This document shows positions 3,489 to 63,990 of a stretch of 64,000 nucleotides of DNA, piece by piece. Position 1 is the stretch's first letter. Each line of letters starts with the position of its first letter. This DNA is from Blastocatellia bacterium (GTDB lineage Bacteria; Acidobacteriota; Blastocatellia; UBA7656). The notes under the pieces are model-generated. The model worked only from the letters and a program-made list of their open reading frames with translations. It was not told the origin of the DNA and did no database searches. Position numbers and translations under genes: made by a program. Where the stretch lies: contig JBJMGV010000126.1 of the NCBI GenBank assembly GCA_045807725.1, positions 28,802-92,801 on the forward strand, given 5' to 3'.

Positions 3489-3753
3489 GGTGCGAATCTC
3501 CAAAATAATCGTAAAGAAGACGAACGGATAGGATACGAAATGGCCTTTGTCTTGTCAAGTTAGACGGCGACACGGATTCGAGCCGCGCCGGCAGCCTCAC
3601 GGTCAGGCCATTTCAATCGCTATGTGGAGAACGACAAGGACGACCGAGTCGAGAATGCGCGGGTAATGATGAAAGCTGACGAGCGACTAGCCTCCGCCGA
3701 TTACAACGTACGTGGGATCACAGTCAGAGAAGATCAAGCAGCCACCATCTCGA

Positions 3754-7273: not shown

Positions 7274-7786
7274 ATGAAGCAATTGAGTAGAATTAAAAAG
7301 ATGGCCATCGCGGGCGCGATGGCTTGCGCGCTGGCTGTGCCGGTCGTGATGGCGCAGACCGACGACGGCGCGAAGGGCGGGCGTCACGGCCACTTCGGCC
7401 AGCGTGGCGAGCATGGTGATCGCGGCGGCTTTGGGATGATGGGCTTTCGTCAGCTCGACTTGACTGACGCGCAGAAAGCGCAGCTCAAGCAGATTCACGA
7501 GAACCACCGCCAGGCTCTTGCGCCGGTGATGGAGCAGATTCGCGCCAAGCGACAGGAGATGCGCGCGGCCAGCGAAAGCGGCACGGTCAACGAAGCCGTG
7601 ATCGCGCAGAAGCTCACCGAGATCGCGCCGCTTGAGGCCAAGGTGGTTGCCGAGCGTGCGCGTGTGCGCCAGGAATCACTCGCCGTGCTGACGGCGGAAC
7701 AGAAGGCCAAGCTCGATCAGATGCGCGAGCAGGCGAAGACTCGCTGGGCCGAGCGTCGCGCTAACAAGCAACAGAAAAATCAGTAA
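7274..7786 (+). CDS. Periplasmic LTXXQ-motif protein (Spy/CpxP/ZraP family)
   Basis: Signal peptide; LTDAQKAQL and LTAEQKAKL motifs; coiled-coil basic protein. Confidence 0.7.
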   Translation: MKQLSRIKKMAIAGAMACALAVPVVMAQTDDGAKGGRHGHFGQRGEHGDRGGFGMMGFRQLDLTDAQKAQLKQIHENHRQALAPVMEQIRAKRQEMRAASESGTVNEAVIAQKLTEIAPLEAKVVAERARVRQESLAVLTAEQKAKLDQMREQAKTRWAERRANKQQKNQ

Positions 7787-19309: not shown

Positions 19310-19437
19310 AATCGCTTCTCGCCATTAAGAATTATGCAGCCATTCACGCCGCTAAGGATTATGCAACCGTTCGCGCCGCTAAGAACTATGCAGCCGTTCG
19401 CGCCGCTAAGGATTATGCAGCCGTTCACGCCGCGTAG
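19310..19437. repeat. 30-bp tandem repeat x4
   Basis: attatgcagccattcacgccgctaagg(a/a)... repeated four times with few substitutions. Confidence 0.75.
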
Positions 19438-19544
19438 CGGCGGGTGAGTTTAGCCAGGCGTTTCAACGCCTGGAAGTCAACGGCGCGGTGATCGCGTCGC
19501 GTCAGCGACGCCTGAATGCCCGCCGATTCAAGCGTCGCTGACGC

Positions 19545-28929: not shown

Positions 28930-30501
28930 TTATGGCGCTTTCGCCTTGGGCGTCGTCGCCGGCGGCTTCGCGGGCGTAGTCGCGGGAGCCTTGGCGGGCG
29001 CGGACTTGGGCGCGGCGGGCTTCGGTATGATGAACGGAAACAGCAGGAGAGCAGGCGGAGGAAAGTCCACCGTGAAGGGCACGTCGCCCGAAATGCCGGT
29101 CGCTTCCCACGACGACATGGGAACCGTCGCTATCTGTTCCTTACCGCTGCCACAGTTGCCCGGACACAAGTCCACTGTATCTTTAACCGTATAACTGATG
29201 TCGGGCATGACGACGAGTTGTGTGCCGGTGTCGAAGATCGTAACTGACCCCTTGGCGATGCGCGCGTCGTCCTGCGGCGAAGGAGTCGCGCCGACGGGAT
29301 TGGCGGCTTGATCCTTGCCGATGCCGCCGGCAATGTTGCCGGGTATCTCGCCGATCACGTTGAAGTTCATTTGATTCGCCCCTGTCCAATCATCTATGGC
29401 TTTGATCTCAGACGGAATGAGCGTGGTGATGTCGAGCTTTAAGAAGCCAGTTGCGGCAGGAACCGTCGGCGGGCTGGCAGTGAGCTTTGCCTTTAGCGCG
29501 TTCAAGAGAAAATCGGTCGTAGCGGCTGTGGTCTTCGACGCGGTAAAGTCAGCGCCGAAGGTCTTCGAGAGGTCTTGTATAGAGCTGCTGCCGCCGAAGG
29601 CCCACGTGCTCCAGAGTGGGAGCACCCGTGAGCTTACGGCGATGCCAATGCCCAACATAATTATCGGCCACATATCTTTGCGCATATCCATCGCCATTCC
29701 AGTTGATAGCAGCGGGGTACAAAAATCCGGGCCGCAGCTCGCTGAAGCGCCCTTCCAGCTTTTTGCGTTCGGGGCGTCGCGTTCCACGGCGGCCATCGGA
29801 ACGTCCTCCTGGCGCTGAAGGTGTTGCGGGGCGCTGCCGCCGCCTTGCTGAACGACGTGCGCCAGCTCGTGCGAAAGCAACTGCCGCCCGCCGGCGCTCG
29901 CCGGCTGATACTTGTCGGCGGCGAAGACAATGTTGCGGCCATAAGTGTAGGCATGCGCATTCAGCTCTTTGGCCGAGCGCGACGCGTCGGCGTCGGCGTG
30001 AATGCGGACCTGGCTGAAATCCTGTCCAAAGCGCGGCTCCATAAAATTGCGGGTGGCGGCGTCCAGAGGTTGACCGGATGAATGCAATACGGAAGAGGCG
30101 AGGGAGGGCAGGCCGGTGGGTTCCTGTCCGCCGGCCTCGACTCGCTGAATCGGCAAAGGCTTGTGCTCCTGACCGGACGGCGGCGTCTGACAGGTCGGGC
30201 AATCGCTGCCGCAGGCACAAGCGCGCTGCACTTGCGGCTCAGGCAAGCGCATCACGCGCTCAGCGATATGGTCGGCCTCGCGCTCGTAACGGTCGCCCGG
30301 CGTGCTTATGGCCAGCTTCGCCTGAATGCCTGTCGATGAGATGGGATTCACTGGGACGCGGCTGAACTCGTGATCGAAGCGCGCGGCTTCAGGACTAGCG
30401 TATCCCTGCGCGTCCTCACGTCGAGATAGCAGGGGACGCGGCGCAGGTTCAAGCAACATCTTCGGTTGAAGCGGACTCGATTTCTGAGCGTAGCTTCTCA
30501 T
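28930..30501 (-). CDS. DUF4157 (zincin-like HExxH) domain protein with an uncharacterised ~250-aa C-terminal region and a Pro/Ala/Lys tail
   Basis: ...ATRNFMEPRFGQDFSQVRIHADADASRSAKELNAHAYTYGRNIVFAADKYQPASAGGRQLLSHELAHVVQQ matches the DUF4157 signature; ATG at 30501 with a GGAGGG RBS. Confidence 0.75.
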   Translation of the reverse strand: MRSYAQKSSPLQPKMLLEPAPRPLLSRREDAQGYASPEAARFDHEFSRVPVNPISSTGIQAKLAISTPGDRYEREADHIAERVMRLPEPQVQRACACGSDCPTCQTPPSGQEHKPLPIQRVEAGGQEPTGLPSLASSVLHSSGQPLDAATRNFMEPRFGQDFSQVRIHADADASRSAKELNAHAYTYGRNIVFAADKYQPASAGGRQLLSHELAHVVQQGGGSAPQHLQRQEDVPMAAVERDAPNAKSWKGASASCGPDFCTPLLSTGMAMDMRKDMWPIIMLGIGIAVSSRVLPLWSTWAFGGSSSIQDLSKTFGADFTASKTTAATTDFLLNALKAKLTASPPTVPAATGFLKLDITTLIPSEIKAIDDWTGANQMNFNVIGEIPGNIAGGIGKDQAANPVGATPSPQDDARIAKGSVTIFDTGTQLVVMPDISYTVKDTVDLCPGNCGSGKEQIATVPMSSWEATGISGDVPFTVDFPPPALLLFPFIIPKPAAPKSAPAKAPATTPAKPPATTPKAKAP

Positions 30502-30841
30502 AAGCCCTTCCCTCCTGCTGTCACGTTTCGGACGGCTAACGCCAACGATCTCTTGCCGGATTATACACTCTTGCTTTTCATTTGTGGCAAAAATGATGAT
30601 GCAATGTAGATATAGCCATACGGCGTCGTCTGGGCGGCGCATTCATCAACGCCGCCTCGGCAAGCAAGCGTCGTTGTACGCCGGCGGAGCAGAGCCGGCG
30701 CGGGCGGCATCCTTGACTTATCTTGTATCGCTCGTGAAGAATAAGTCGGAACGAGAAGGCACGAAAGCGTTATTCATTGCGCCGGTCACGCTTCTCGGCT
30801 CTTCAGTCGTTGATGAATTGCTTTTTGAATGATTCACGTGT

Positions 30842-31930: not shown

Positions 31931-34255
31931 TCATTCATTCGAGCCGTCGGTGCGTGAAGCGAGGCGGGCGATCACCAGCGCCAGTTCAAGCGGGTCGGCG
32001 GGCTTGGCGACGTGCATCTGGTAGCCGGCGGAGATGGCGCGCAAGCGGTCTTCGGCGCGCGCGTAAGCGGTCAACGCTACCGCCGGTGTTTTGCCGCGCG
32101 TCGGCGCAAGCTCACGAATCTGCCGCATCAGTTGATAGCCATCTTCGCCCGGCATCTCGATGTCGCTGATGATAATGTTGGGCGGCCATTCCTGAAACAC
32201 GCCGACCGCTTCCCGGCTCGACGCGCACGCCCGCACCTGCGCGCCGAATTGTTCGATCATAAGGCGCAACATATCGCGCGTGTCCGGCTCGTCGTCAACG
32301 ATCAGCACGCGCAGGCCCGAAAGGTCGGGCGCATTCTGCGACGACGTGAGCGGCGGACTCATCGCGGCGCGCTCCGCGTCGTAGCCTTCGCTGTGCAATG
32401 CCATCAACGGCAGTCTCACGGTAAAGACCGCGCCGTGATCTTGCCCGGCGCTCGCCGCCGTCACCGTGCCGCCGTGCAGCTCGATTAAATGGCGAACAAT
32501 CGCCAGCCCCAGCCCCAGCCCGCCGTGTATGCGCGTGCTGGTCGAGTCGCCTTGACGGAAGCGATCAAAGACGAACGGCAGCAGCTCGCTTTGTATGCCC
32601 TGGCCGGTGTCTGTGACGACGATTTCGGCGTGCGAGTCGGCCTGTTGCAATCGCACCTCTATGCGCCCGCCGCGCGGCGTGAACTTGACGGCGTTCGACA
32701 GCAGATTCCAGACCACCTGTTGCAAGCGGTTGCCGTCGCCCGACACCGGCGCGGTGTGCGGATCGAGAATCGTCTGCACACGTATCTCTTTGGCGTCCGC
32801 CGCCGGGCGAACGGAATCGAGCGCCGATTCAATGATCGAGGCGATATCTATGGGCTGCACGTTCAATCGCAGCTTGCCGGTGATGATGCGCGACACGTCG
32901 AGGATGTCTTCGACGATCTGCGCCTGCACCTTGGCGTTGCGCTCGATGGTTTCGAGCGCGCGCTCCGTCGTCGCCTCGTCGAAGCTGCGGTTGCGCAGCA
33001 TATGTGACCAGCCGACGATGGCATTCAACGGCGTGCGTAGCTCGTGCGAGACGGTGGCGAGAAACTCGTCCTTCAAACGATTGGCATCTTCGGCCAGCGC
33101 CCGCGCCCGCTGCGCTTCGGCCAGCAACCGTTCGCGCTCACGTTCGGCCTGCTTGCGCTCGCTGATGTCGCGGGCAATGGTCGAAGCGCCGGTGAGCGTG
33201 CCATTCGGCCCTTTGATCGGCGAGATGGTCAGCGCTACGTCAACTCGCTCGCCGCTTTTCTTGACGCGAATCGTTTCGTAATGATGAACACGATTGCCGC
33301 TTCTGAGCTGTTCCAGGATGCGGTCAATGTCGTCCTGTTCGGGATCGACCAACAGGCGTATGTGCTTGCCGACGACCTCTTCGGCGCGATAGCCATAGAG
33401 CCGTTCAGCGCCCGTGTTCCAACTGACGATGGTGCCGTCGAGTCGCTTGCCGATGATGGCGTCTTCGGACGATTCGACAATCGAGGCGACGAAGCTGAGC
33501 GCCTCTTCGACGCGGCGGCGCTCACTGATGTCGCGGAAGACGAGCACGACGCCCGACAACTGGCCCTGATCATCCTTGATCGGCGCGCCGCTATCATCAA
33601 TCGGAACATCAGAGCCGTCTTTCCGAATCAGCACTGTGTGATTGGCCAGCCCGACGATGACGCCCTCGCGCAGCACCTTGTCAACCGGACTTTCGACCGG
33701 CTGGCGCGTCCCTTCATTGACAATGACGAAGACCTCGGCGAGGGGCCGGCCTATCGCTTCGCCGCGCCTCCATCCGGTCAGCGATTCAGCCACAGGGTTG
33801 ATGAAGGTGATGCGCCCTTCGGTGTCGGTGGCGATCACCGCGTCGCCGATGCTGCCCAGCGTGATGGCCAGCAGCTTGCGGTTCTCGCTGAGCGCGGCGG
33901 TGTTCTCTTCGCCGCGCCGCCGTGCGCGGTGCAAGCCTTCGCTTAAAGCCGAGATGGCGCTGCAAACGAACAGGAAGGTCAACAGGCCGATGGCCGTGCC
34001 TGCGTCACGCACGAACCACGAATTATCCGGCGGCAGCCAGCGATAGAGCGAGATGATGCTGCCGAGCAGCGTCGCCAGCAATCCCGGCCCCAGTCCGCCA
34101 AACCAGGCGCTTAAGGCGACGCCGAGAAAGAACGTGATGAAGGGAAATTCGTTGCCGATGACCGGCTCAAGCGCCCAGCGCAGCAAGGCCGCCATCGCCG
34201 TCACCACGACGGCAACGCCATAACATAACAGGGGCGAGCGCGCTTGTTTGGCCAT
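31931..34255 (-). CDS. Hybrid sensor histidine kinase/response regulator: DUF4118-like membrane domain, 2x PAS, HisKA, HATPase and REC
   Basis: ...LATVSHELRTPLNAI... H-box; G1/G2 boxes; C-terminal LIVDDEPDTRD...D receiver. Confidence 0.9.
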   Translation of the reverse strand: MAKQARSPLLCYGVAVVVTAMAALLRWALEPVIGNEFPFITFFLGVALSAWFGGLGPGLLATLLGSIISLYRWLPPDNSWFVRDAGTAIGLLTFLFVCSAISALSEGLHRARRRGEENTAALSENRKLLAITLGSIGDAVIATDTEGRITFINPVAESLTGWRRGEAIGRPLAEVFVIVNEGTRQPVESPVDKVLREGVIVGLANHTVLIRKDGSDVPIDDSGAPIKDDQGQLSGVVLVFRDISERRRVEEALSFVASIVESSEDAIIGKRLDGTIVSWNTGAERLYGYRAEEVVGKHIRLLVDPEQDDIDRILEQLRSGNRVHHYETIRVKKSGERVDVALTISPIKGPNGTLTGASTIARDISERKQAERERERLLAEAQRARALAEDANRLKDEFLATVSHELRTPLNAIVGWSHMLRNRSFDEATTERALETIERNAKVQAQIVEDILDVSRIITGKLRLNVQPIDIASIIESALDSVRPAADAKEIRVQTILDPHTAPVSGDGNRLQQVVWNLLSNAVKFTPRGGRIEVRLQQADSHAEIVVTDTGQGIQSELLPFVFDRFRQGDSTSTRIHGGLGLGLAIVRHLIELHGGTVTAASAGQDHGAVFTVRLPLMALHSEGYDAERAAMSPPLTSSQNAPDLSGLRVLIVDDEPDTRDMLRLMIEQFGAQVRACASSREAVGVFQEWPPNIIISDIEMPGEDGYQLMRQIRELAPTRGKTPAVALTAYARAEDRLRAISAGYQMHVAKPADPLELALVIARLASRTDGSNE

Positions 34256-34764
34256 AGCTATCGTAAAGCGATCATCGACGCCTCGCCCTGCGCGCACACT
34301 GACGATTATAGAAAGAGAAAGCGACGTGCGCTGCGCATAGCAACACAGCGACCACGACCGCTAAGGTCAAGCGGTGCTAGCGCAATGAGGGCGAAGAATA
34401 CGATGATGCTCACGCAAACAAACTGAGCGGCGGGGTTCTTGCTGTGTCCACGTTCAGCGACCCCCGACCAGCGCAAAGATTAGCAGACTGACGAGAAACC
34501 ATCCAAGAAAATTGCGCGCCGGAACGCCTCAGTACGCGCCCCGCATTCGTTCAGTCGTCGCGCCTTCTCGCTTGATGAGAGGGGAAACGTGGCAACGATC
34601 ACGTTCGGGTAACGCACGGCGGCATAGATTAGCTCGACGCGAGCGCGCCTGGCGGGCGGCAAGAATCGCGTGACGATGAAGAGGCTGGCGCTGTAAGCAA
34701 GCAAGCCTCTGCCGGCGCGACTCCACCTGCTCTCGTTCAAGGATGTAGGTCTTCACAGCCATCG

Positions 34765-35688
34765 CTAATCAAGCAGGTCGGCGAGCGCGGCGCCCAGCGT
34801 CTCGAAGCGAAAGCGGTAGCCGGCGGCGATGACCGCGCGGGGCAGAACGCGCTGGCTTGAGAGCAACACGGCAGCCATCTCGCCCATCGCCGCGCGCAAG
34901 CCGAACTCCGGCACAGGCACAAAGGCGGGGCGATGCAGCGCGCCGGCGAGTTGGCGCGTGAACTCATCGTTCGTTACCGGCGCGGGCGCTGTGCCATTGA
35001 CCGGCCCTTTGATCGCCGCGTTCGCCAGCGCGTAACGGTAGATGCCAACGATGTCGGCGATGTGAATCCAGGGCAGCCACTGACGGCCACTGCCGAGCTT
35101 GCCGCCGAGTCCGAGCTTGAATGGCAGCATCATCTTTTCGAGCGCGCCGCCTTCGCGGCTCAGAACAACACCTGTGCGCGCCAGCACAACGCGAATGCCT
35201 GCGGCCTTGGCCTGCTCGGCCTCGCGCTCCCACTCGATACAGACTTCAGGCATAAAGCCTTCGCCCGGCGGCGACAGTTCATCAAGCGATTCGTCGCCGC
35301 GATCTCCGTAAAAGCCTATGGCTGAGCTGCTGATGAAGACGGCAGGCTTCGTAGGCATAGCGCGCAGGCCGCTGACCAGATGCCGCGTGCTGAGAACGCG
35401 TGAATCGCGTATGCGCCGCTTCTGTTCGTCGCTCCAGCGTCGCGCCGCGATAGGCTCGCCCGCCAGGTGAATCACCGCGTCAACGCCGATCATCACGTCA
35501 TCATCGGGAGGCCCGCCGAGCGCGTCCCATCGGCGCATCTCTGTGACCGGCACGCCGCGCGCGTTTTCGGGCGAGCGCGATAACCCAATGACGGTGTGGC
35601 CATCGTCGAGCAGAGATTGGCAGAGGTGGCGACCGATCAACCCGGTCGCTCCCGTCACCAGAATTCGCGTCGCTTTCGGCTCGCTCAC
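34765..35688 (-). CDS. TIGR01777/YfcH-family NAD-dependent epimerase/dehydratase (DUF1731 C-terminus)
   Basis: ILVTGATGLIGRHL Rossmann motif; ...WIHIADIV... Confidence 0.85.
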   Translation of the reverse strand: MSEPKATRILVTGATGLIGRHLCQSLLDDGHTVIGLSRSPENARGVPVTEMRRWDALGGPPDDDVMIGVDAVIHLAGEPIAARRWSDEQKRRIRDSRVLSTRHLVSGLRAMPTKPAVFISSSAIGFYGDRGDESLDELSPPGEGFMPEVCIEWEREAEQAKAAGIRVVLARTGVVLSREGGALEKMMLPFKLGLGGKLGSGRQWLPWIHIADIVGIYRYALANAAIKGPVNGTAPAPVTNDEFTRQLAGALHRPAFVPVPEFGLRAAMGEMAAVLLSSQRVLPRAVIAAGYRFRFETLGAALADLLD

Positions 35689-35759
35689 TTTAAACTCCTC
35701 GGCGGCAATGGCCAGTTGCTATCTTCTCCGCTGTTCGTTACTAGCCTAGACAGTCACGC

Positions 35760-35845
35760 TTAAATTGTCAAGATTTTTTCTAGACCAAAGCTGGACAAAT
35801 CATTGAATTTGCGTTAAGTTGTTCAAGAATTATCTTGACAGCTCA
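35760..35845. promoter_or_regulatory. Divergent promoter region with three TGTCAAGA-like repeats (candidate operator) and a TTGACA -35 box
   Basis: aattgtcaagatttt, agttgttcaagaatt, and the inverted tatcttgaca, upstream of the MerR/B12 regulator gene. Confidence 0.35.
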
Positions 35846-35860
35846 GAGAGGCTACTCAGA

Positions 35861-36778
35861 ATGCAGGAGATGACCACGGAAGAATCACCATCGCAGGTCG
35901 GCAAGTATCGCATCGGCACAGTGACACGATTGACGGGTCTGTCGGCGGACGTGGTGCGCGTGTGGGAGCGGCGCTATGGCGCGATCCGCCCGCAACGCAG
36001 CGAGGCGGGCACACGGCTCTATTCCGACGCCGACATCGCGCGGCTCAGGCGTTTGCGGCAAGCGGTCGAGAAGGGCTACAGCATCAGCCGGGCGGCGCGG
36101 CTTTCGGACGACGAGCTGACCGCCGCCGTCAGCGTGGTCGCGCAGGCGGCGGACGCCTCCGGCCCTTACGCGCTCGTACGCGAGCGGTTCCTGGCTGCCA
36201 TCAAGCAGATGGATGTAGTGACGGCAGACCTGGAGATGAGCCGCGCGGCAACGCTCTTTCCGGCGCGCGACCTGATCAATCAAATCGTCACGCCGTTGCT
36301 GGCGGAGATCGGCGAGCGCTGGGCACACCGCGAGTTCGGCGTCGCGCACGAACACGTCGCCACCAATCTGCTGCGCAACCTGCTCAGCTCGCTCATACGG
36401 CTCTACCCGCCCGACCGCCACGCCGAGACCATAGTGCTGGCGACGCCCGCCGGCGAGCGGCACGAATTCGGCATCCTTCTGGCGGCGCTGGTGGCGGCGA
36501 CGCGGGGCTGGCGCGTGGTTTATGTCGGCGCTGATCTGCCCGCCGCCGAAATCGCTTATGCGATGCGGCTGACGAAGTCGCGTTACCTGGCGCTGAGCCT
36601 GGTCAACGAGCACCCGGAAGCAGCAGAGGAGATGAACGCGCTCGCTCAACAACTATCAACCGGCGTGCGCGTATGGGTCGGCGGCGGCGAAGCCATCAAG
36701 TACCGCGACCAGCTTCATCAACTGAACTGGATTCTCATCCGCGACCTCGACGACCTCGACGACCGCTTGCGAAGGTAG
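35861..36778 (+). CDS. MerR-family transcriptional regulator with C-terminal cobalamin-binding domain (CarH/LitR-like)
   Basis: YRIGTVTRLTGLSADVVRVWERRYG HTH, followed by a B12-binding Rossmann-like domain (...VVYVGADLP...). Confidence 0.8.
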   Translation: MQEMTTEESPSQVGKYRIGTVTRLTGLSADVVRVWERRYGAIRPQRSEAGTRLYSDADIARLRRLRQAVEKGYSISRAARLSDDELTAAVSVVAQAADASGPYALVRERFLAAIKQMDVVTADLEMSRAATLFPARDLINQIVTPLLAEIGERWAHREFGVAHEHVATNLLRNLLSSLIRLYPPDRHAETIVLATPAGERHEFGILLAALVAATRGWRVVYVGADLPAAEIAYAMRLTKSRYLALSLVNEHPEAAEEMNALAQQLSTGVRVWVGGGEAIKYRDQLHQLNWILIRDLDDLDDRLRR

Positions 36779-36782
36779 TAGT

Positions 36783-36998
36783 CAGAGCGTATCTGAGAAG
36801 CCCTGAAGGGGCGCGATTCAATAGCCCAGCCCAACGGGCTGGGTACACCCAGCGACCATTCGGCAAGCCCTGAAAGGGCGTAATAGGTGATCGGTTATTG
36901 CGCCCTTTCAGGGCTTGGCGGTTAGCCCCGCCGCTCACCCAGGGCGCTGCCCTGGGCTGTCGAATCCCGCCCCTTCAGGGCTTCTCAGATACGCTCTA
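36783..36998. repeat. ~220-bp MITE-like palindromic element, copy A
   Basis: Terminal inverted repeats agagcgtatctgagaagccctgaaggggcg ... cgccccttcagggcttctcagatacgctctatag; internal aagccctgaaagggcg hairpins; about 90% identical to the inverted copy at 53003-53222. Confidence 0.65.
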
Positions 36999-36999
36999 T

Positions 37000-37335
37000 A
37001 GTTCACGATGCAATAGTTGATGCAAGCTCCGTCAGGAGCGCAATGTTTATAGTAACGCGGGCGGTTTAATCTTCAAGCTCCGTCAGGAGCGCGATGTTTA
37101 TAGCCAACGATGCAATAGATCAAACAAGCTCCGTTAGGAGCGCGATGTTCATAGCTCACGATGCCACAGATGATGCAAGCTCCGTTAGGAGCGCAATGTT
37201 TATAGATATGGCAGAAGGATGTGACGAAGCCCCGTAGGGGCGCGATGTTGACATCACGCTCCTGACGGAGCTTGCTTCTTCTATTGCATCGGTAACTATA
37301 AACATTGCGCTCCTGACGGAGCTTGGGGAACTATC
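37000..37335. repeat. ~51-bp tandem repeat array (4-5 units plus inverted units)
   Basis: Unit gatgcaagctccgtcaggagcgcaatgtttatag plus a ~21-bp variable linker; each unit has a gctcc-gtca-ggagc hairpin. Confidence 0.7.
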
Positions 37336-37445
37336 AGCTATCAACTGATCACTGGCCACTAACCAATGACCACTGACAACCGGCCAGTGGCCATTGACAA
37401 CCGGCCACTGACTACTGGCCACTGGCCAGTGGTCACCACTCCTGG
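37336..37445. repeat. (CCAGTGG/CCACTGG)-type heptamer array
   Basis: cactggccactaaccaatgaccactgacaaccggccagtggccattgacaaccggccactgactactggccactggccagtggtcacc. Confidence 0.6.
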
Positions 37446-37505
37446 CACATTCGTTGCTCCTTCACGACTGGCTGAAGCAATTTGCATTGAAAGCGAGCAA
37501 AGTGG

Positions 37506-38719: not shown

Positions 38720-39136
38720 CTAACTGCGAGCGTCTGCGAGCCGCGCCGCTGTCATAAAGCCGGCGATCAGGAAGATGACGCCCAGCGCGATGTGAATGAC
38801 GTGATCCATCGTGCCGAGTTCGAGCATGCCGGGAATGACACGCAGCAGGCGGTCATCGTGCGGGCCGGGGACGCCGTGCGACGGCTCACCCGCATGGCCA
38901 GCAATGAAGCCGACAACGCCGAGCAGGCCATACACCGCGCCGAAGATGATGCAGAACAATCGCGCCTGCGCCAGTGTGCCTTTCAATCCGAAGTAGAGCG
39001 ACACCGCACCCGATACCAGATGCACGATGTCGTGCGTAACGCTCAGGTGAGTGCCCATCAGGCCGGGCGCAGCGAACCCCACGAGTCCCACAAGAATGAA
39101 CACAATCCCTAAGATGGTTGCGATCCTTTTTGCCAT
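38720..39136 (-). CDS. DUF4383-family membrane protein
   Basis: Four TM helices, ...HDIVHLVSGA...GHAGEPSHG... pattern. Confidence 0.65.
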   Translation of the reverse strand: MAKRIATILGIVFILVGLVGFAAPGLMGTHLSVTHDIVHLVSGAVSLYFGLKGTLAQARLFCIIFGAVYGLLGVVGFIAGHAGEPSHGVPGPHDDRLLRVIPGMLELGTMDHVIHIALGVIFLIAGFMTAARLADARS

Positions 39137-52917: not shown

Positions 52918-53284
<367 letters not shown>

Positions 53285-60772: not shown

Positions 60773-60969
60773 TCGCGGGCCCAGCTTTCTTATCCTTCGC
60801 GGTAAGTTGCGCCACTCGAATAATTTTGAACCCCGGCTCAGGTTTTACCGTAAAATTCTGCACGGATGCTCAGAATTTTCTTGACACCGGCGACGCGCGA
60901 AATTAGCATTGTAGCGCTCGGAATCTCGGCTCAATAGTGGTCGCAGCGCCCTCCGAAGGAGACAACGTG

Positions 60970-62403
60970 ATGAACTTAAGAAGGCTGACCCTCCCCTTTC
61001 TGCTCACGGCATTGGCATCGCTCGGCATTGCCTTCGTGACTTCAACCAGCGCCAGTTCGGGCAAAGAAGTCACCTTCAATAAAGACGTCGCGCCGATCTT
61101 CTATAAGAACTGCGCGGAATGTCACAAGCCCAACGACATCGCGCCAATGTCGCTGATCTCTTACAAAGAAGTCCGCCCGTGGGCGCGCTCGATCAAAGAG
61201 AAAGTCATCACCCGCGAGATGCCGCCATGGAGTCCCGATCCGAAATACGGCCAGTTCAGCAACGACCACCGCCTGAGCGATAAAGACGTTCAGACCATCG
61301 TTGCCTGGGTGGACGGCGGCGCGAAAGAAGGCGACGCGAAAGACCTGCCGCCCGCGCCCGAATTCACCAGCGGCGGCTGGGAACTCGGAAAGCCCGATCA
61401 GATATTCTCGATGAAAGAAGAGTTCATCGTGCAGCCGGGCCAGCCCGACACGATTCAGAACTTCATCATCCCGACCAACTTCAAAGAAGATAAGTGGATT
61501 CAGTCGGCTGAGATTCTGCCGGGCAACAAGAGGATCGTTCATCACGTCATCGCCTTCATCCAGACGCCTGAGATGATTGCGAAGCTGCGCTCTGCCGAGG
61601 GCCAGCGCCGCATCGGCGAGATGACGAAAGTCTTCTACCGCGACGGCACGCTGATTAAAGCTAAGGCCGACGCGCCGATCATTGATAATGGATGCAGCGA
61701 TGCGAGCGGCGGCTCGGCTTTCCCGCGCCCGAAGGCAGCCGAAGGCGGCGATGCCTTTGGCCTCTTGCTCGCGGGTTACGCGCCGGGCAAAGGGCTTGAT
61801 GTGTGGCCGGCGGGCACGGCTAAGAAAGTCGCCGCCGGTTCGATGATTGTCTTCCAGATTCACTACTCGGCGTTTCGCGGCAAGTTCGTGCAGGCGGAAA
61901 AAGACATGACCAGCATCGGCCTGCACTTTACATCGCAGCCGCCGCAGCACTCGCTCAACACCATCGGCATACAGAATCACTACTTCAAGATTCCCGCCGG
62001 TGTGACCGACCACGAAGTGACGGCCTGCTACACCTTCGACAGCGACGTGAAGCTGATGAGCTATATGCCGCACATGCACCTGCGCGGCAAGGATATGAAG
62101 TACGATGTGATCTATCCCGATGGCCGCAAAGAGACGCTGCTGTGGGTTCCGAAGTTCAGCTTCAACTGGCAGACGATGTATTACCTGAAGAAGCCTGTGT
62201 CGATACCCAAAGGCACCAAGATGATCATCACCGCGCACTACGACAACTCGGCGAAGAACAAGTACAACCCCGACGCGACGAAGGACATTCGCTGGGGTGA
62301 TCCGACATATGAAGAGATGATGATCGGCTGGATGGATTATTACGTAGACGCGCCGGCGACGCCCGACAAGGCCGCCGCGTCGGCGCGCACGGCGCGCAAG
62401 TAG
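60970..62403 (+). CDS. Secreted mono-heme cytochrome c (PSCyt-like) fused to a copper type II monooxygenase-like (PHM/DBH-like) domain, paralog 1
   Basis: VAPIFYKNCAECHKPNDIAPMSL heme site; HH(191-192), H in QIHYS, MPHMHLRGKDM, EEMMIGWMD spaced like the CuH/CuM ligands. Confidence 0.65.
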   Translation: MNLRRLTLPFLLTALASLGIAFVTSTSASSGKEVTFNKDVAPIFYKNCAECHKPNDIAPMSLISYKEVRPWARSIKEKVITREMPPWSPDPKYGQFSNDHRLSDKDVQTIVAWVDGGAKEGDAKDLPPAPEFTSGGWELGKPDQIFSMKEEFIVQPGQPDTIQNFIIPTNFKEDKWIQSAEILPGNKRIVHHVIAFIQTPEMIAKLRSAEGQRRIGEMTKVFYRDGTLIKAKADAPIIDNGCSDASGGSAFPRPKAAEGGDAFGLLLAGYAPGKGLDVWPAGTAKKVAAGSMIVFQIHYSAFRGKFVQAEKDMTSIGLHFTSQPPQHSLNTIGIQNHYFKIPAGVTDHEVTACYTFDSDVKLMSYMPHMHLRGKDMKYDVIYPDGRKETLLWVPKFSFNWQTMYYLKKPVSIPKGTKMIITAHYDNSAKNKYNPDATKDIRWGDPTYEEMMIGWMDYYVDAPATPDKAAASARTARK

Positions 62404-62547: not shown

Positions 62548-63990
62548 ATGAAGAAAGCTATCACCATCGTGTTCGCCGCCGCGTTCGTCGCCGCGCTCTG
62601 TTTCGCCTTTTCGCCGGCGACCAGCGCCGCCGGCCCGAGCAAACGCGAAGTCACCTTCTCGAAAGACATCGCGCCGATCTTTTTCAAGAACTGCGCCGAG
62701 TGTCACAAACCCAACGACATTGCGCCGATGTCTCTGCTCACGTTCAAAGAGGCGCGTCCGTGGGCGCGCTCGATCAAAGAAAAGGTCGCCACCCGCGAGA
62801 TGCCGCCCTGGAGTCCTGACCCGCACTACGGCCAGTTCACCAACGAGAAGCGGCTGACGGACAAAGAAGTCGAGACTATCGTTGCCTGGGTCGATGGCGG
62901 CGCGAAGGAAGGCAATCCGAAAGACCTGCCGCCGACGCCTGAGTTCGCCAAAGGCGGCTGGACGATTGGCAAACCCGACGCCGTCTTCGAGATGGGCGAA
63001 GAGTGGACGATTAATCCGAACGCGCCCGACAACTACATCAACTTCTTCATGCCGACGAACTTTAAAGAAGATCGTTGGGTGCAGGCGGCTGAGATACTGC
63101 CCGGCAATCGCAAGGTCGTGCATCACGTCATCGCCTTCATCCAGTCGCCGCAGATGATGGCCAAGCGCGCCGAAGCCGCGAAGAACGGCGGCAAGGTCGG
63201 CGGGCGCACGGCGGACGGCAAGCTGTTTTATCTCGACGGCACGCTGCGCCGCGTCAAGATGGACGCGCCGGTGACGGACGACGCATGCAGCCAGCAGCAG
63301 CCGACCGGCGGGCGTCGCATCGGCGGCGGCGGCGACGAGAACGAAGGCGCGCTGCTTGGCGGTTACGCGCCGGGTCTCGAAGCGGCGGTCTACCCGGCGG
63401 GCGTCGCCAAGCGGCTGCCGGCAGGCTCGACCATCATGTTTCAGGTGCACTATTCGAGCTTCCGTGGCGCGCTCGACAAGCCCGAAAAAGACCGCACGAA
63501 GATCGGCCTGATCTTCGCCAAAGAGCCGCCCGATAAGATGGCCGTGACGTTTGCGGCGGCCAACGTGATGTTCAAGATTCCGGCGGGCTCAGAGAGTCAC
63601 GAAGTCACCGCTTGCCAGACTGTGCCGGCAGACGTTCAAGTGCTCAACTACATGCCGCATATGCATCTGCGCGGCAAGGATATGAAGTACGAAATCATTT
63701 ATCCCGACGGCAAGCGCGAGACAGTGCTGTGGGTTCCGAAGTTCAACTTCAACTGGCAGGCTGCCTACGTGCTGAAGGAGCCATTGAAGGTGCCGAAGGG
63801 GTCGAAGCTGATCGTCACCGCCCACTACGACAACTCGAAGAAGAACAAGTACAACCCCGACCCGGCGAAAGATGTGCGTTGGGGCGATCCGACCTATGAC
63901 GAGATGATGATTGGCTGGCTCGACATCATGGTCGATAACCCGATGAAGAAGCCGAAAGCCGATCCGGCAGCGGGCGGCGGCCAGAAGTAA
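62548..63990 (+). CDS. Cytochrome c / copper-monooxygenase-like fusion protein, paralog 2
   Basis: ~60% identical to paralog 1; the same CAECH, HHVIAF, QVHYS, MPHMHLRGKDM and DEMMIGWLD motifs. Confidence 0.65.
   Translation: MKKAITIVFAAAFVAALCFAFSPATSAAGPSKREVTFSKDIAPIFFKNCAECHKPNDIAPMSLLTFKEARPWARSIKEKVATREMPPWSPDPHYGQFTNEKRLTDKEVETIVAWVDGGAKEGNPKDLPPTPEFAKGGWTIGKPDAVFEMGEEWTINPNAPDNYINFFMPTNFKEDRWVQAAEILPGNRKVVHHVIAFIQSPQMMAKRAEAAKNGGKVGGRTADGKLFYLDGTLRRVKMDAPVTDDACSQQQPTGGRRIGGGGDENEGALLGGYAPGLEAAVYPAGVAKRLPAGSTIMFQVHYSSFRGALDKPEKDRTKIGLIFAKEPPDKMAVTFAAANVMFKIPAGSESHEVTACQTVPADVQVLNYMPHMHLRGKDMKYEIIYPDGKRETVLWVPKFNFNWQAAYVLKEPLKVPKGSKLIVTAHYDNSKKNKYNPDPAKDVRWGDPTYDEMMIGWLDIMVDNPMKKPKADPAAGGGQK

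Follow-up and report, generated by a model that had tools for sequence, protein, structure and literature searches.

A predicted CarH/LitR photoreceptor-repressor of Blastocatellia, its putative divergent operator and the remnant of a carotenoid operon

Introduction

CarH homologues are defined by the joint presence of a Wx9EH motif and a B12-binding motif, which sets them apart from the B12-independent CarA (PMC9304148, PMC8156234). Definitions have been published for the latter motif, D/ExHx2G/P-x41-SxT/V-x22-27-GG, and for the motif RxWERRY (PMC9304148). In CarH of Thermus thermophilus (TtCarH), His132 takes over as the upper cobalt ligand once photolysis has occurred and is needed for the light-driven disassembly of the tetramer; the H132A variant mostly remains tetrameric in the light (PMC10442372). 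The 11-bp operator repeat nAnnTnnACAn embeds the -35 box in TtCarH, CarHBm and Myxococcus xanthus (PMC9304148, PMC8156234), and operators that consist of one consensus repeat plus pseudo-repeats have been documented for CarH (PMC9304148). Here we describe a gene of this kind, litR/carH (litR below), in a stretch of 64,000 nucleotides (nt) of contig JBJMGV010000126.1 from a Blastocatellia bacterium of the phylum Acidobacteriota, an affiliation that homologues also indicate. This stretch is referred to as the window, and all coordinates are those of the window unless a relative is named. Judging from sequence, it is highly likely that litR encodes a class I CarH/LitR photoreceptor-repressor that follows the standard CarH logic, and that it shares its upstream region with a divergent gene for a short-chain dehydrogenase/reductase (SDR).

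Results

The LitR protein carries the motifs and the fold of CarH

The open reading frame that ends at 36778 contains the Pfam domains MerR_1 (residues 16-82), B12-binding_2 (106-177) and B12-binding (190-282). An earlier reading of the same DNA (the original prediction) had proposed a MerR helix-turn-helix fused to a cobalamin-binding domain in the CarH/LitR architecture, and the Pfam domains together with the match to TtCarH confirm it. The following features were assigned.

35870..36778, + strand: litR/carH gene, 302 amino acids (aa) from the likelier start 35870 (Pfam, PDB, NCBIfam, homologue N-termini)
35906..36106, + strand: MerR-type winged-helix DNA-binding domain (Pfam residues 16-82) with the recognition motif R33-V-W-E-R-R-Y39
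36320..36355, + strand: Wx9EH motif, W154...E164-H165, predicted cap over the adenosyl group, aligned to TtCarH W131/E141/H142
36455..36472, + strand: E199-R-H201-E-F-G204, predicted lower axial His ligand motif, with H201 aligned to TtCarH H177

Motif conservation was assessed in 30 homologues with 61-93% identity. In the RxWERRY motif, W35, R38 and Y39 are invariant, and E36 and R37 are conserved in at least 90%; W154, E164 and H165 of the Wx9EH motif, which belongs to the four-helix-bundle subdomain, are likewise invariant. From the segment E199-R-H201-E-F-G204 it is 41 residues to S246-L-V248 and another 25 to G274-G275. All of these are invariant or nearly so, H201 being fully invariant, and the spacing fits D/ExHx2G-x41-SxT/V-x22-27-GG, so that LitR contains the published CarH B12-binding motif (PMC9304148). 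The original prediction had singled out the B12-binding residues for a careful alignment, and H201, W154, E164 and H165 were all found in place opposite their TtCarH counterparts. At the metagenome loci used below, ERHEFG was a search pattern, and its presence there is no independent evidence.

A sequence search of the PDB with LitR returned T. thermophilus LitR/CarH as the best match over the full length (3whp, 5c8d; E 2e-30). The light-response signature GxxW, EH, GxxH, GxxxP (PMC11796333) is present as GERW, EH, GERH, GADLP. Of the residues at the oligomer interface of TtCarH, the salt-bridge pair R176/D201 corresponds to R200/D225 and G192 to G216, and both are conserved. The AlphaFold2 model of LitR had a predicted local distance difference test score of 83.9 and a predicted template modelling (TM) score of 0.71. 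When this model was submitted to Foldseek, the top 50 PDB matches were all TtCarH/LitR, with E values down to 3e-17 and TM scores of 0.76-0.79 for the cobalamin-binding domain. Close homologues of LitR carry the Joint Genome Institute label 'light-induced transcriptional regulator'.

Two predicted operators, each centered on a -35 box, lie between litR and the SDR gene

The non-coding gap between the SDR gene and litR measures 172 bp (35689..35860), or 181 bp up to the likelier start 35870, instead of the 130 bp given originally, and its G+C content is 42% as compared with 60% for the window. The genes and elements on either side of and within this gap are listed below; operator repeats were assigned with the consensus nAnnTnnACAn (11 bp) taken from PMC9304148 and PMC8156234.

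34765..35688, - strand: atypical SDR of the TIGR01777 (YfcH/SDR39U1/ThyD-like) family, 307 aa, Pfam Epimerase (PF01370) plus C-terminal DUF1731 (PF08338)
35743..35748, - strand: putative SDR -10 box TAGGCT, 17-nt spacer
35765..35775, - strand: predicted SDR-promoter operator repeat aAtcTtgACAa, a perfect nAnnTnnACAn; -35 box TTGACA from 35771 to 35766 on the minus strand
35776..35798, no strand assigned: two 11-bp-phased elements between the promoters, TCTAGA (minus strand ggtcTagAAAa) and aAgcTggACAa
35788-35798, + strand: the element aAgcTggACAa, a third perfect nAnnTnnACAn
35820..35830, + strand: upstream flanking pseudo-repeat tgTTCAAGAat, the third copy of the original prediction; no TnnACA repeat
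35831..35841, + strand: predicted litR-promoter operator repeat tAtcTtgACAg, a perfect nAnnTnnACAn; contains the -35 box TTGACA (35835-35840)
35842..35852, + strand: position of the downstream 11-bp repeat of the litR operator, degenerate in the window (ctcaGagAGGc)
35857..35862, + strand: putative litR -10 box CAGAAT, 16-nt spacer, 10/12 in the promoter scan

The octamer TGTCAAGA occurs exactly at 35766-35773 (+) and at 35833-35840 (-), and the second copy overlaps the TTGACA -35 box, as had been noticed originally. The two sites belong to a 9-nt perfect inverted repeat, TGTCAAGAT / ATCTTGACA, whose arms are separated by 57 nt; ATCTTGACA is thus found twice in the gap in opposite orientations, and each copy holds the -35 box of one of the two divergent promoters (litR and SDR). 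The original prediction counted three motif copies, two direct and one inverted. Two exact copies do exist, in opposite orientation, whereas the third, TGTTCAAGA at 35820-35828, requires the insertion of one nucleotide. Relatives have a TGTTnAGAT of the same length at this place, which identifies it as a degenerate flanking element rather than an indel copy; in part of the clade the position reads TTGTTnAGA and is moderately conserved.

The CarH half-site AnnTnnACA is present three times in the 181 nt (35766-74 on the minus strand, 35789-97 and 35832-40 on the plus strand) against 0.38 expected, a number that was reached in 30 of 5,000 shuffles. The two inter-promoter elements form a 34-bp quasi-palindrome with the SDR -35 site. 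As read from the sequence, the layout consists of two -35-centered operators, one per divergent promoter, each with weaker 11-bp-phased repeats. The proposed CarH-type operator is supported by its conservation in relatives, although not as three copies of one octamer.

The litR start also had to be revised from 35861 to, more likely, 35870. The upstream ATG overlaps the -10 box (CAGAAT-G), the ATG at 35870 lies 7 nt past it, and the N-termini of homologues align to this second ATG. Since an ATG follows the -10 box after 6-10 nt at 32 of 33 loci, the litR mRNA is very probably leaderless. The sequence TGGACA at 35792-35797 was considered as a second litR promoter and discarded, as no conserved -10 box follows it in relatives. 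An Rfam search of the intergenic region was negative for cobalamin riboswitches and for any other regulatory RNA.

The predicted operator is conserved among relatives

We compared the window with 7 genome loci and 80 metagenome loci. At the litR promoter, 31 of 33 relatives have an exact TTGACA and 21 an exact ATCTTGACA, and an nAnAAT -10 box follows after a spacer of 16-18 nt at all 33 loci. Spacers of this length fit repression by occlusion rather than MerR-type activation through an over-long spacer. Eleven bases past the litR -35 repeat, 24 of the 33 relatives have gATCnnGAC(G/A) (GACG in 16, GACA in 8), a repeat of which the window and its nearest relatives have a degenerate form. At the SDR promoter, 24 of the 26 relatives that could be anchored have an exact ATCTTGACA; here, TCTGG is found 11 nt upstream, and a TAnGCT-type -10 box after 17 nt is conserved in the 26 loci.

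The distance between the two boxes is either 56-58 or 67-70 bp, with no intermediate values, and the two classes thus differ by one helical turn. What the shorter class is missing is precisely one unit of 11 bp, the CTGGACA element, which is conserved in the longer class. The boxes are retained in relatives with 52-98% protein identity, including locus L090 (described below), whose intergenic region carries the same operator. The conservation of the repeats, which the original prediction had proposed to examine, is in our view the decisive sequence evidence for the operator.

Relatives place photolyase and carotenoid genes behind the SDR gene

The original prediction regarded the regulon as unknown. 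Relatives point to its content. Behind the SDR gene and on the same strand, they encode an SRPBCC-like protein of 172-180 aa with a weak Polyketide_cyc2 match (p172/p180), a DNA photolyase (PF00875) and a phytoene synthase (PF00494). The order SDR-p172-photolyase-crtB on one strand was observed in four loci (L003, L004, L026 and L033), and subsets of it in 8 more. The closest long contig is L090 (172 kb), with a LitR 93% identical and a right flank collinear with the window. Here, the SDR gene heads ten same-strand genes, which include those for p180, a photolyase-domain protein, CrtB, a 560-aa amino oxidase, a hydrolase, a polyprenyl synthase, a family-2 glycosyltransferase, a second amino oxidase and a Caroten_synth protein. 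By annotation this is a complete carotenoid cluster, probably of the carotenoid-glycoside type. Relatives thus put a photolyase, a phytoene synthase and a carotenoid cluster behind the same SDR gene and the same predicted operator.

Homologues of p172/p180 were also observed beside LitR homologues of 35-55% identity (L047 1858-2307, L048 4449-4904, L053, L054 5936-6424, L063, L086 and L087), where they are accompanied by a DUF1722/2-thiouracil-desulfurase protein and an NmrA-like SDR with DUF2867. These occurrences hint at a broader set of genes associated with LitR.

The window carries the scar of this operon

Pfam annotation of the window within 18-53 kb found no intact crt or phr gene. The earlier statement that carotenoid and photolyase genes are not adjacent holds in this sense for intact genes, but the following two remnants lie directly after the SDR gene.

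34724..34762, - strand: remnant of the second operon gene (SRPBCC-like p172/p180), first 13 codons MAVKTYILEREQV (blastn, tblastn with L090 p180)
34528..34719, - strand: dead crtB (phytoene synthase) fragment, codons ~46-109 of 339 (tblastn, blastn)

By blastn, positions 34724-36785, which cover litR, the operator, the SDR gene and the first 13 p180 codons, are 86% identical to L090 8865-10925, and positions 34536-34704 are 82% identical to the inside of the L090 crtB (7401-7569). In tblastn, the crtB fragment shows 70% protein identity to L090 CrtB over codons 46-109 (E 9e-25), and its identity to CrtB of L003 and L020 is 48-51%. Pfam SQS_PSY matches it at an E value of 0.11 only, the Asp-rich motif YPDEIVD has changed to YPNVIVA, and the reading frame ends after 86 codons. 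To the left of the fragment, the sequence follows a histidine-kinase flank common to L092 and L001, in both of which PAS histidine kinases adjoin the SDR gene as they do in the window. The comparison indicates that the remainder of p180, the photolyase gene and crtB from codon ~110 on have disappeared from this lineage, whereas the sensor, the operator and the SDR gene were kept; on this reading, the SDR gene alone has survived intact under the divergent operator at the locus.

In the place of the carotenoid cluster, genes for PAS/PAS histidine kinase-receiver hybrids are found in the window (31931-34297, -), in L001 (1015-4728) and in L092 (2124-8438, two genes). The SDR-litR segment of the window is 86% identical to L090 and 79% to L092, and its kinase flank is about 80% identical to L092/L001. 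This pattern suggests recombination at the scar.

Observations that weigh against the assignment, and alternative explanations

A number of observations weigh against the reading of litR and its upstream region as a standard CarH system. LitR scores 147 bits against the NCBIfam CarH equivalog NF052513 (cutoff 400), aligned over positions 3-272 of 274; because this is far below the cutoff, LitR is to be regarded as a distant member of the CarH family, with about 30% identity to TtCarH, and not as an orthologue by NCBI's rule. Gly160 of TtCarH, at the dimer-dimer interface, falls into an alignment gap and has no alignable counterpart in LitR. The position of His132 is occupied by Ala (W154-A155-H156, 36320-36328). 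On the DNA, the window has one TnnACA-consensus repeat per promoter with degenerate flanking repeats, and a series of 3-4 tandem consensus repeats is absent. A 9-nt exact inverted repeat arose in 112 of 2,000 dinucleotide shuffles of the gap, and the 3 copies of TGTCAAGA in the 64 kb, where 1.3 are expected, are no significant enrichment; such window-only statistics of the octamer and the inverted repeat are too weak to serve as proof of an operator. In 7 of the 33 relatives the SDR-side ATCTTGACA box is missing and the arrangement differs. Finally, we infer B12 binding, the light response, the oligomeric state, the exact protein-DNA contacts and the co-transcription of the operon from sequence.

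As to the Ala at the His132 position, a His lies one residue further in LitR (W+2, H156), within a loop of the AlphaFold2 model, and W-[A/S/V]-H is kept at 39 of 40 clade loci (L001-L044), whereas more distant CarH-like homologues mostly have no His at either W+1 or W+2. In this clade, the putative upper-ligand His may have shifted from W+1 to W+2.

Three alternative explanations were considered. The ATCTTGACA boxes might be plain strong -35 elements of two housekeeping-type promoters, with the regulator binding elsewhere or not at this locus. TTGACA is indeed the sigma-70 consensus, each box has a plausible -10 element at 16-17 nt, the inverted-repeat statistics of the window are weak, and TTGACA is also present at other promoters of the window, for example, at 3553, 5660 and 60881. 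However, ATC precedes 45 of the 59 litR and SDR TTGACA boxes and none of the 73 other TTGACA in the same DNA, so that the extension is confined to these two promoters. Furthermore, all 50 copies of ATCTTGACA in 36 related Blastocatellia loci (277 kb) lie at most 260 nt upstream of litR. The same extended box on both divergent promoters, the helically quantized spacing and the 11-bp-phased partial repeats, as well as the fit to the published nAnnTnnACAn repeat, which elsewhere also embeds the -35 box, argue in the same direction. We consider this explanation improbable.

We judge it slightly less probable still that LitR responds to B12 without responding to light, as a sensor of cobalamin supply in the dark, or that it represses independently of B12 in the manner of CarA and depends on an antirepressor. 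The Trp of Wx9EH is missing from CarA, whereas the whole motif is invariant in LitR and its homologues, and CarH homologues are by published definition those that have both motifs (PMC8156234). The genes controlled in relatives are photolyase and carotenoid genes, a classic light regulon, and no CarS-like gene adjoins litR. Three facts speak for such a regulator: proteins with B12-binding domains are not all photoreceptors (PMC11796333), M. xanthus CarA works without B12 although it has kept the B12 motif (PMC9304148), and LitR lacks the equivalent of His132, whose exchange to Ala leaves TtCarH largely tetrameric in the light (PMC10442372). Nevertheless, the His at W+1 is also missing in most distant CarH-like homologues. 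That LitR is a MerR-type activator which distorts an over-long promoter spacer upon a change of ligand state, as its MerR-family N-terminal domain and the partly quasi-palindromic SDR-side operator might suggest, is hardly credible, since both spacers have the optimal 16-18 nt and not the 19-20 nt of MerR-activated promoters, and the conserved boxes lie on the -35 elements and not within the spacer.

The SDR gene is the constant neighbor of litR within the clade

The TIGR01777 family is widespread and includes Escherichia coli YfcH, human SDR39U1, plant GC1 and cyanobacterial ThyD. The SDR of the window scores 359 bits against the NCBIfam model TIGR01777 (cutoff 207), which bears out the original family assignment, and 290 bits over the full length of the ThyD equivalog NF050030, below the cutoff of 400. 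It is the divergent neighbor of litR at all 33 loci with a LitR at least 52% identical and sufficient upstream DNA, and also in L090-L092, whereas a TIGR01777 gene beside LitR was absent from all 45 more distant loci (LitR at most 46% identical). The other genes that flank the litR-SDR pair vary among loci. The 120 SDR homologue matches listed all belong to the same clade, and among them no link to a light regulator outside the clade emerged.

The only studied bacterial member of the family is ThyD (All2390) of Anabaena, which high light induces 5-8 fold and which the cells require to grow under such light (PMC11711299). In the literature, we found no paper that links TIGR01777 to carotenoids or LitR. 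In this clade, the SDR gene appears as the invariant first gene of a regulon under a B12 photoreceptor. Because it has stayed with the operator even after the loss of the carotenoid and photolyase genes, we tentatively suggest, as a possibility that we consider rather doubtful, that the SDR protects from light directly and without photosynthesis, possibly via carotenoid (glycoside) or membrane-lipid chemistry.

Other features of the window

Several further observations were made in the window. Four Acido-Lenti-1 RNA motifs (RF01687) are present at 36799-36843 (minus), 36938-36982 (plus), 19428-19473 (minus) and 53164-53208 (plus), two of which are arms of an inverted repeat of about 210 nt directly after the litR stop codon. 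The gap between litR and the topoisomerase IB gene (36779-37505, 730 bp) further contains a 51-bp tandem repeat of 4.1 copies (36997-37205) and 7/21-nt repeats (37344-37431). As the same gap measures only 70-340 nt in L090 and L092, it looks like inserted repeat or mobile DNA. A gene for a DUF4383 membrane protein (38720-39136, -) lies near the 3' end of litR in convergent orientation in at least 9 clade loci, including L005, L012, L018, L024, L035 and L039; it has no obvious operator.

The gene at 28930-30642 (-) encodes a protein of 570 aa that contains an eCIS_core domain (PF13699). At 60937-62403 (+) and 62548-63990 (+), there are tandem paralogues with cytochrome c and Cu2_monoox_C domains, the first of which is preceded by a promoter-like box, TTCTTGACA, at 60878-60886. 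Position weight matrices built from relatives were used to search the 64-kb window for extra operator sites. The best further candidate, at 60855-60888 upstream of the first paralogue, was rejected as an ordinary promoter because it scored 11.5 bits as compared with 34 for the real site.

Discussion

By homology to the CarH proteins of Thermus and Bacillus, LitR would in the dark bind adenosylcobalamin via H201 as the lower ligand, with W154, E164 and H165 forming the cap, and would assemble into an oligomer, probably a tetramer. This oligomer would sit on the 11-bp-phased repeats over the -35 boxes of two back-to-back sigma-70-type promoters and would occlude RNA polymerase from the leaderless litR and from the divergent, SDR-led operon. 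Ultraviolet, blue or green light would then cleave the Co-C bond, upon which the oligomer is expected to fall apart and both promoters to fire.

In terms of novelty the outcome is a clean negative: the family of the regulator is well described, and its close homologues are already labelled light-induced regulators by public pipelines. What the locus adds is the likely extension of CarH-type photoregulation to soil Blastocatellia and a well-defined predicted operator, ATCTTGACA on two phase-locked divergent promoters, that could serve to locate the remaining members of the regulon in complete genomes. It also appears to capture a regulon in the process of decay, in which the carotenoid/photolyase operon has been deleted and the sensor and the SDR gene have been retained. 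If the His at W+2 is a shifted upper ligand, it would provide a natural test of the His132 ligand-switch model. The position of the SDR gene under a light operator, together with the high-light phenotype of ThyD, gives a clue, open to experimental test, to what the TIGR01777 family does.

Among the known systems, T. thermophilus CarH/LitR (5C8D, 5C8E, 5C8F, 3WHP) is the best match in sequence and fold. It shares with LitR the three-part architecture, RxWERRY, Wx9EH, ExHxxG...SxV...GG and the R-D salt bridge; in both cases an nAnnTnnACAn repeat holds the -35 box, and the gene is divergent from a carotenoid-related target and autoregulated, which is a prediction in the case of LitR. The differences comprise the identity of about 30%, the replacement of His132 by Ala with a His at W+2 and the unalignable Gly160. 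Furthermore, T. thermophilus has one 3-repeat operator, whereas the window has two -35-centered operators 56-70 bp apart with one perfect repeat per promoter; the first target is a TIGR01777 SDR, and no gene for an LdrP-type activator is adjacent.

The myxobacterial CarH operators, especially those of the Sorangiineae (PMC9304148), resemble the one predicted here in having one or two consensus 11-bp repeats plus pseudo-repeats, in the assignment of two operators to divergent promoters and in the location of the -35 TTGACA inside the repeat. In contrast to myxobacteria, the present system belongs to another phylum, litR is a single, probably leaderless gene that is not part of a crt operon, and the SDR gene heads the target operon. 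Class I LitR proteins of Bacillus megaterium and Streptomyces (PMC9758184) are, as proposed for LitR of the window, photosensory MerR-family regulators of carotenoid genes based on adenosyl-B12; in the window, no gene for a partner extracytoplasmic function sigma factor (LitS) is adjacent. As to the SDR, it misses the cutoff of the ThyD model (290 vs. 400 bits), and it occurs without photosynthesis genes in the window and without thylakoids, in contrast to Anabaena ThyD (All2390), but it belongs to the same TIGR01777 family, matches the ThyD model over its full length and lies under the predicted operator of a light sensor.

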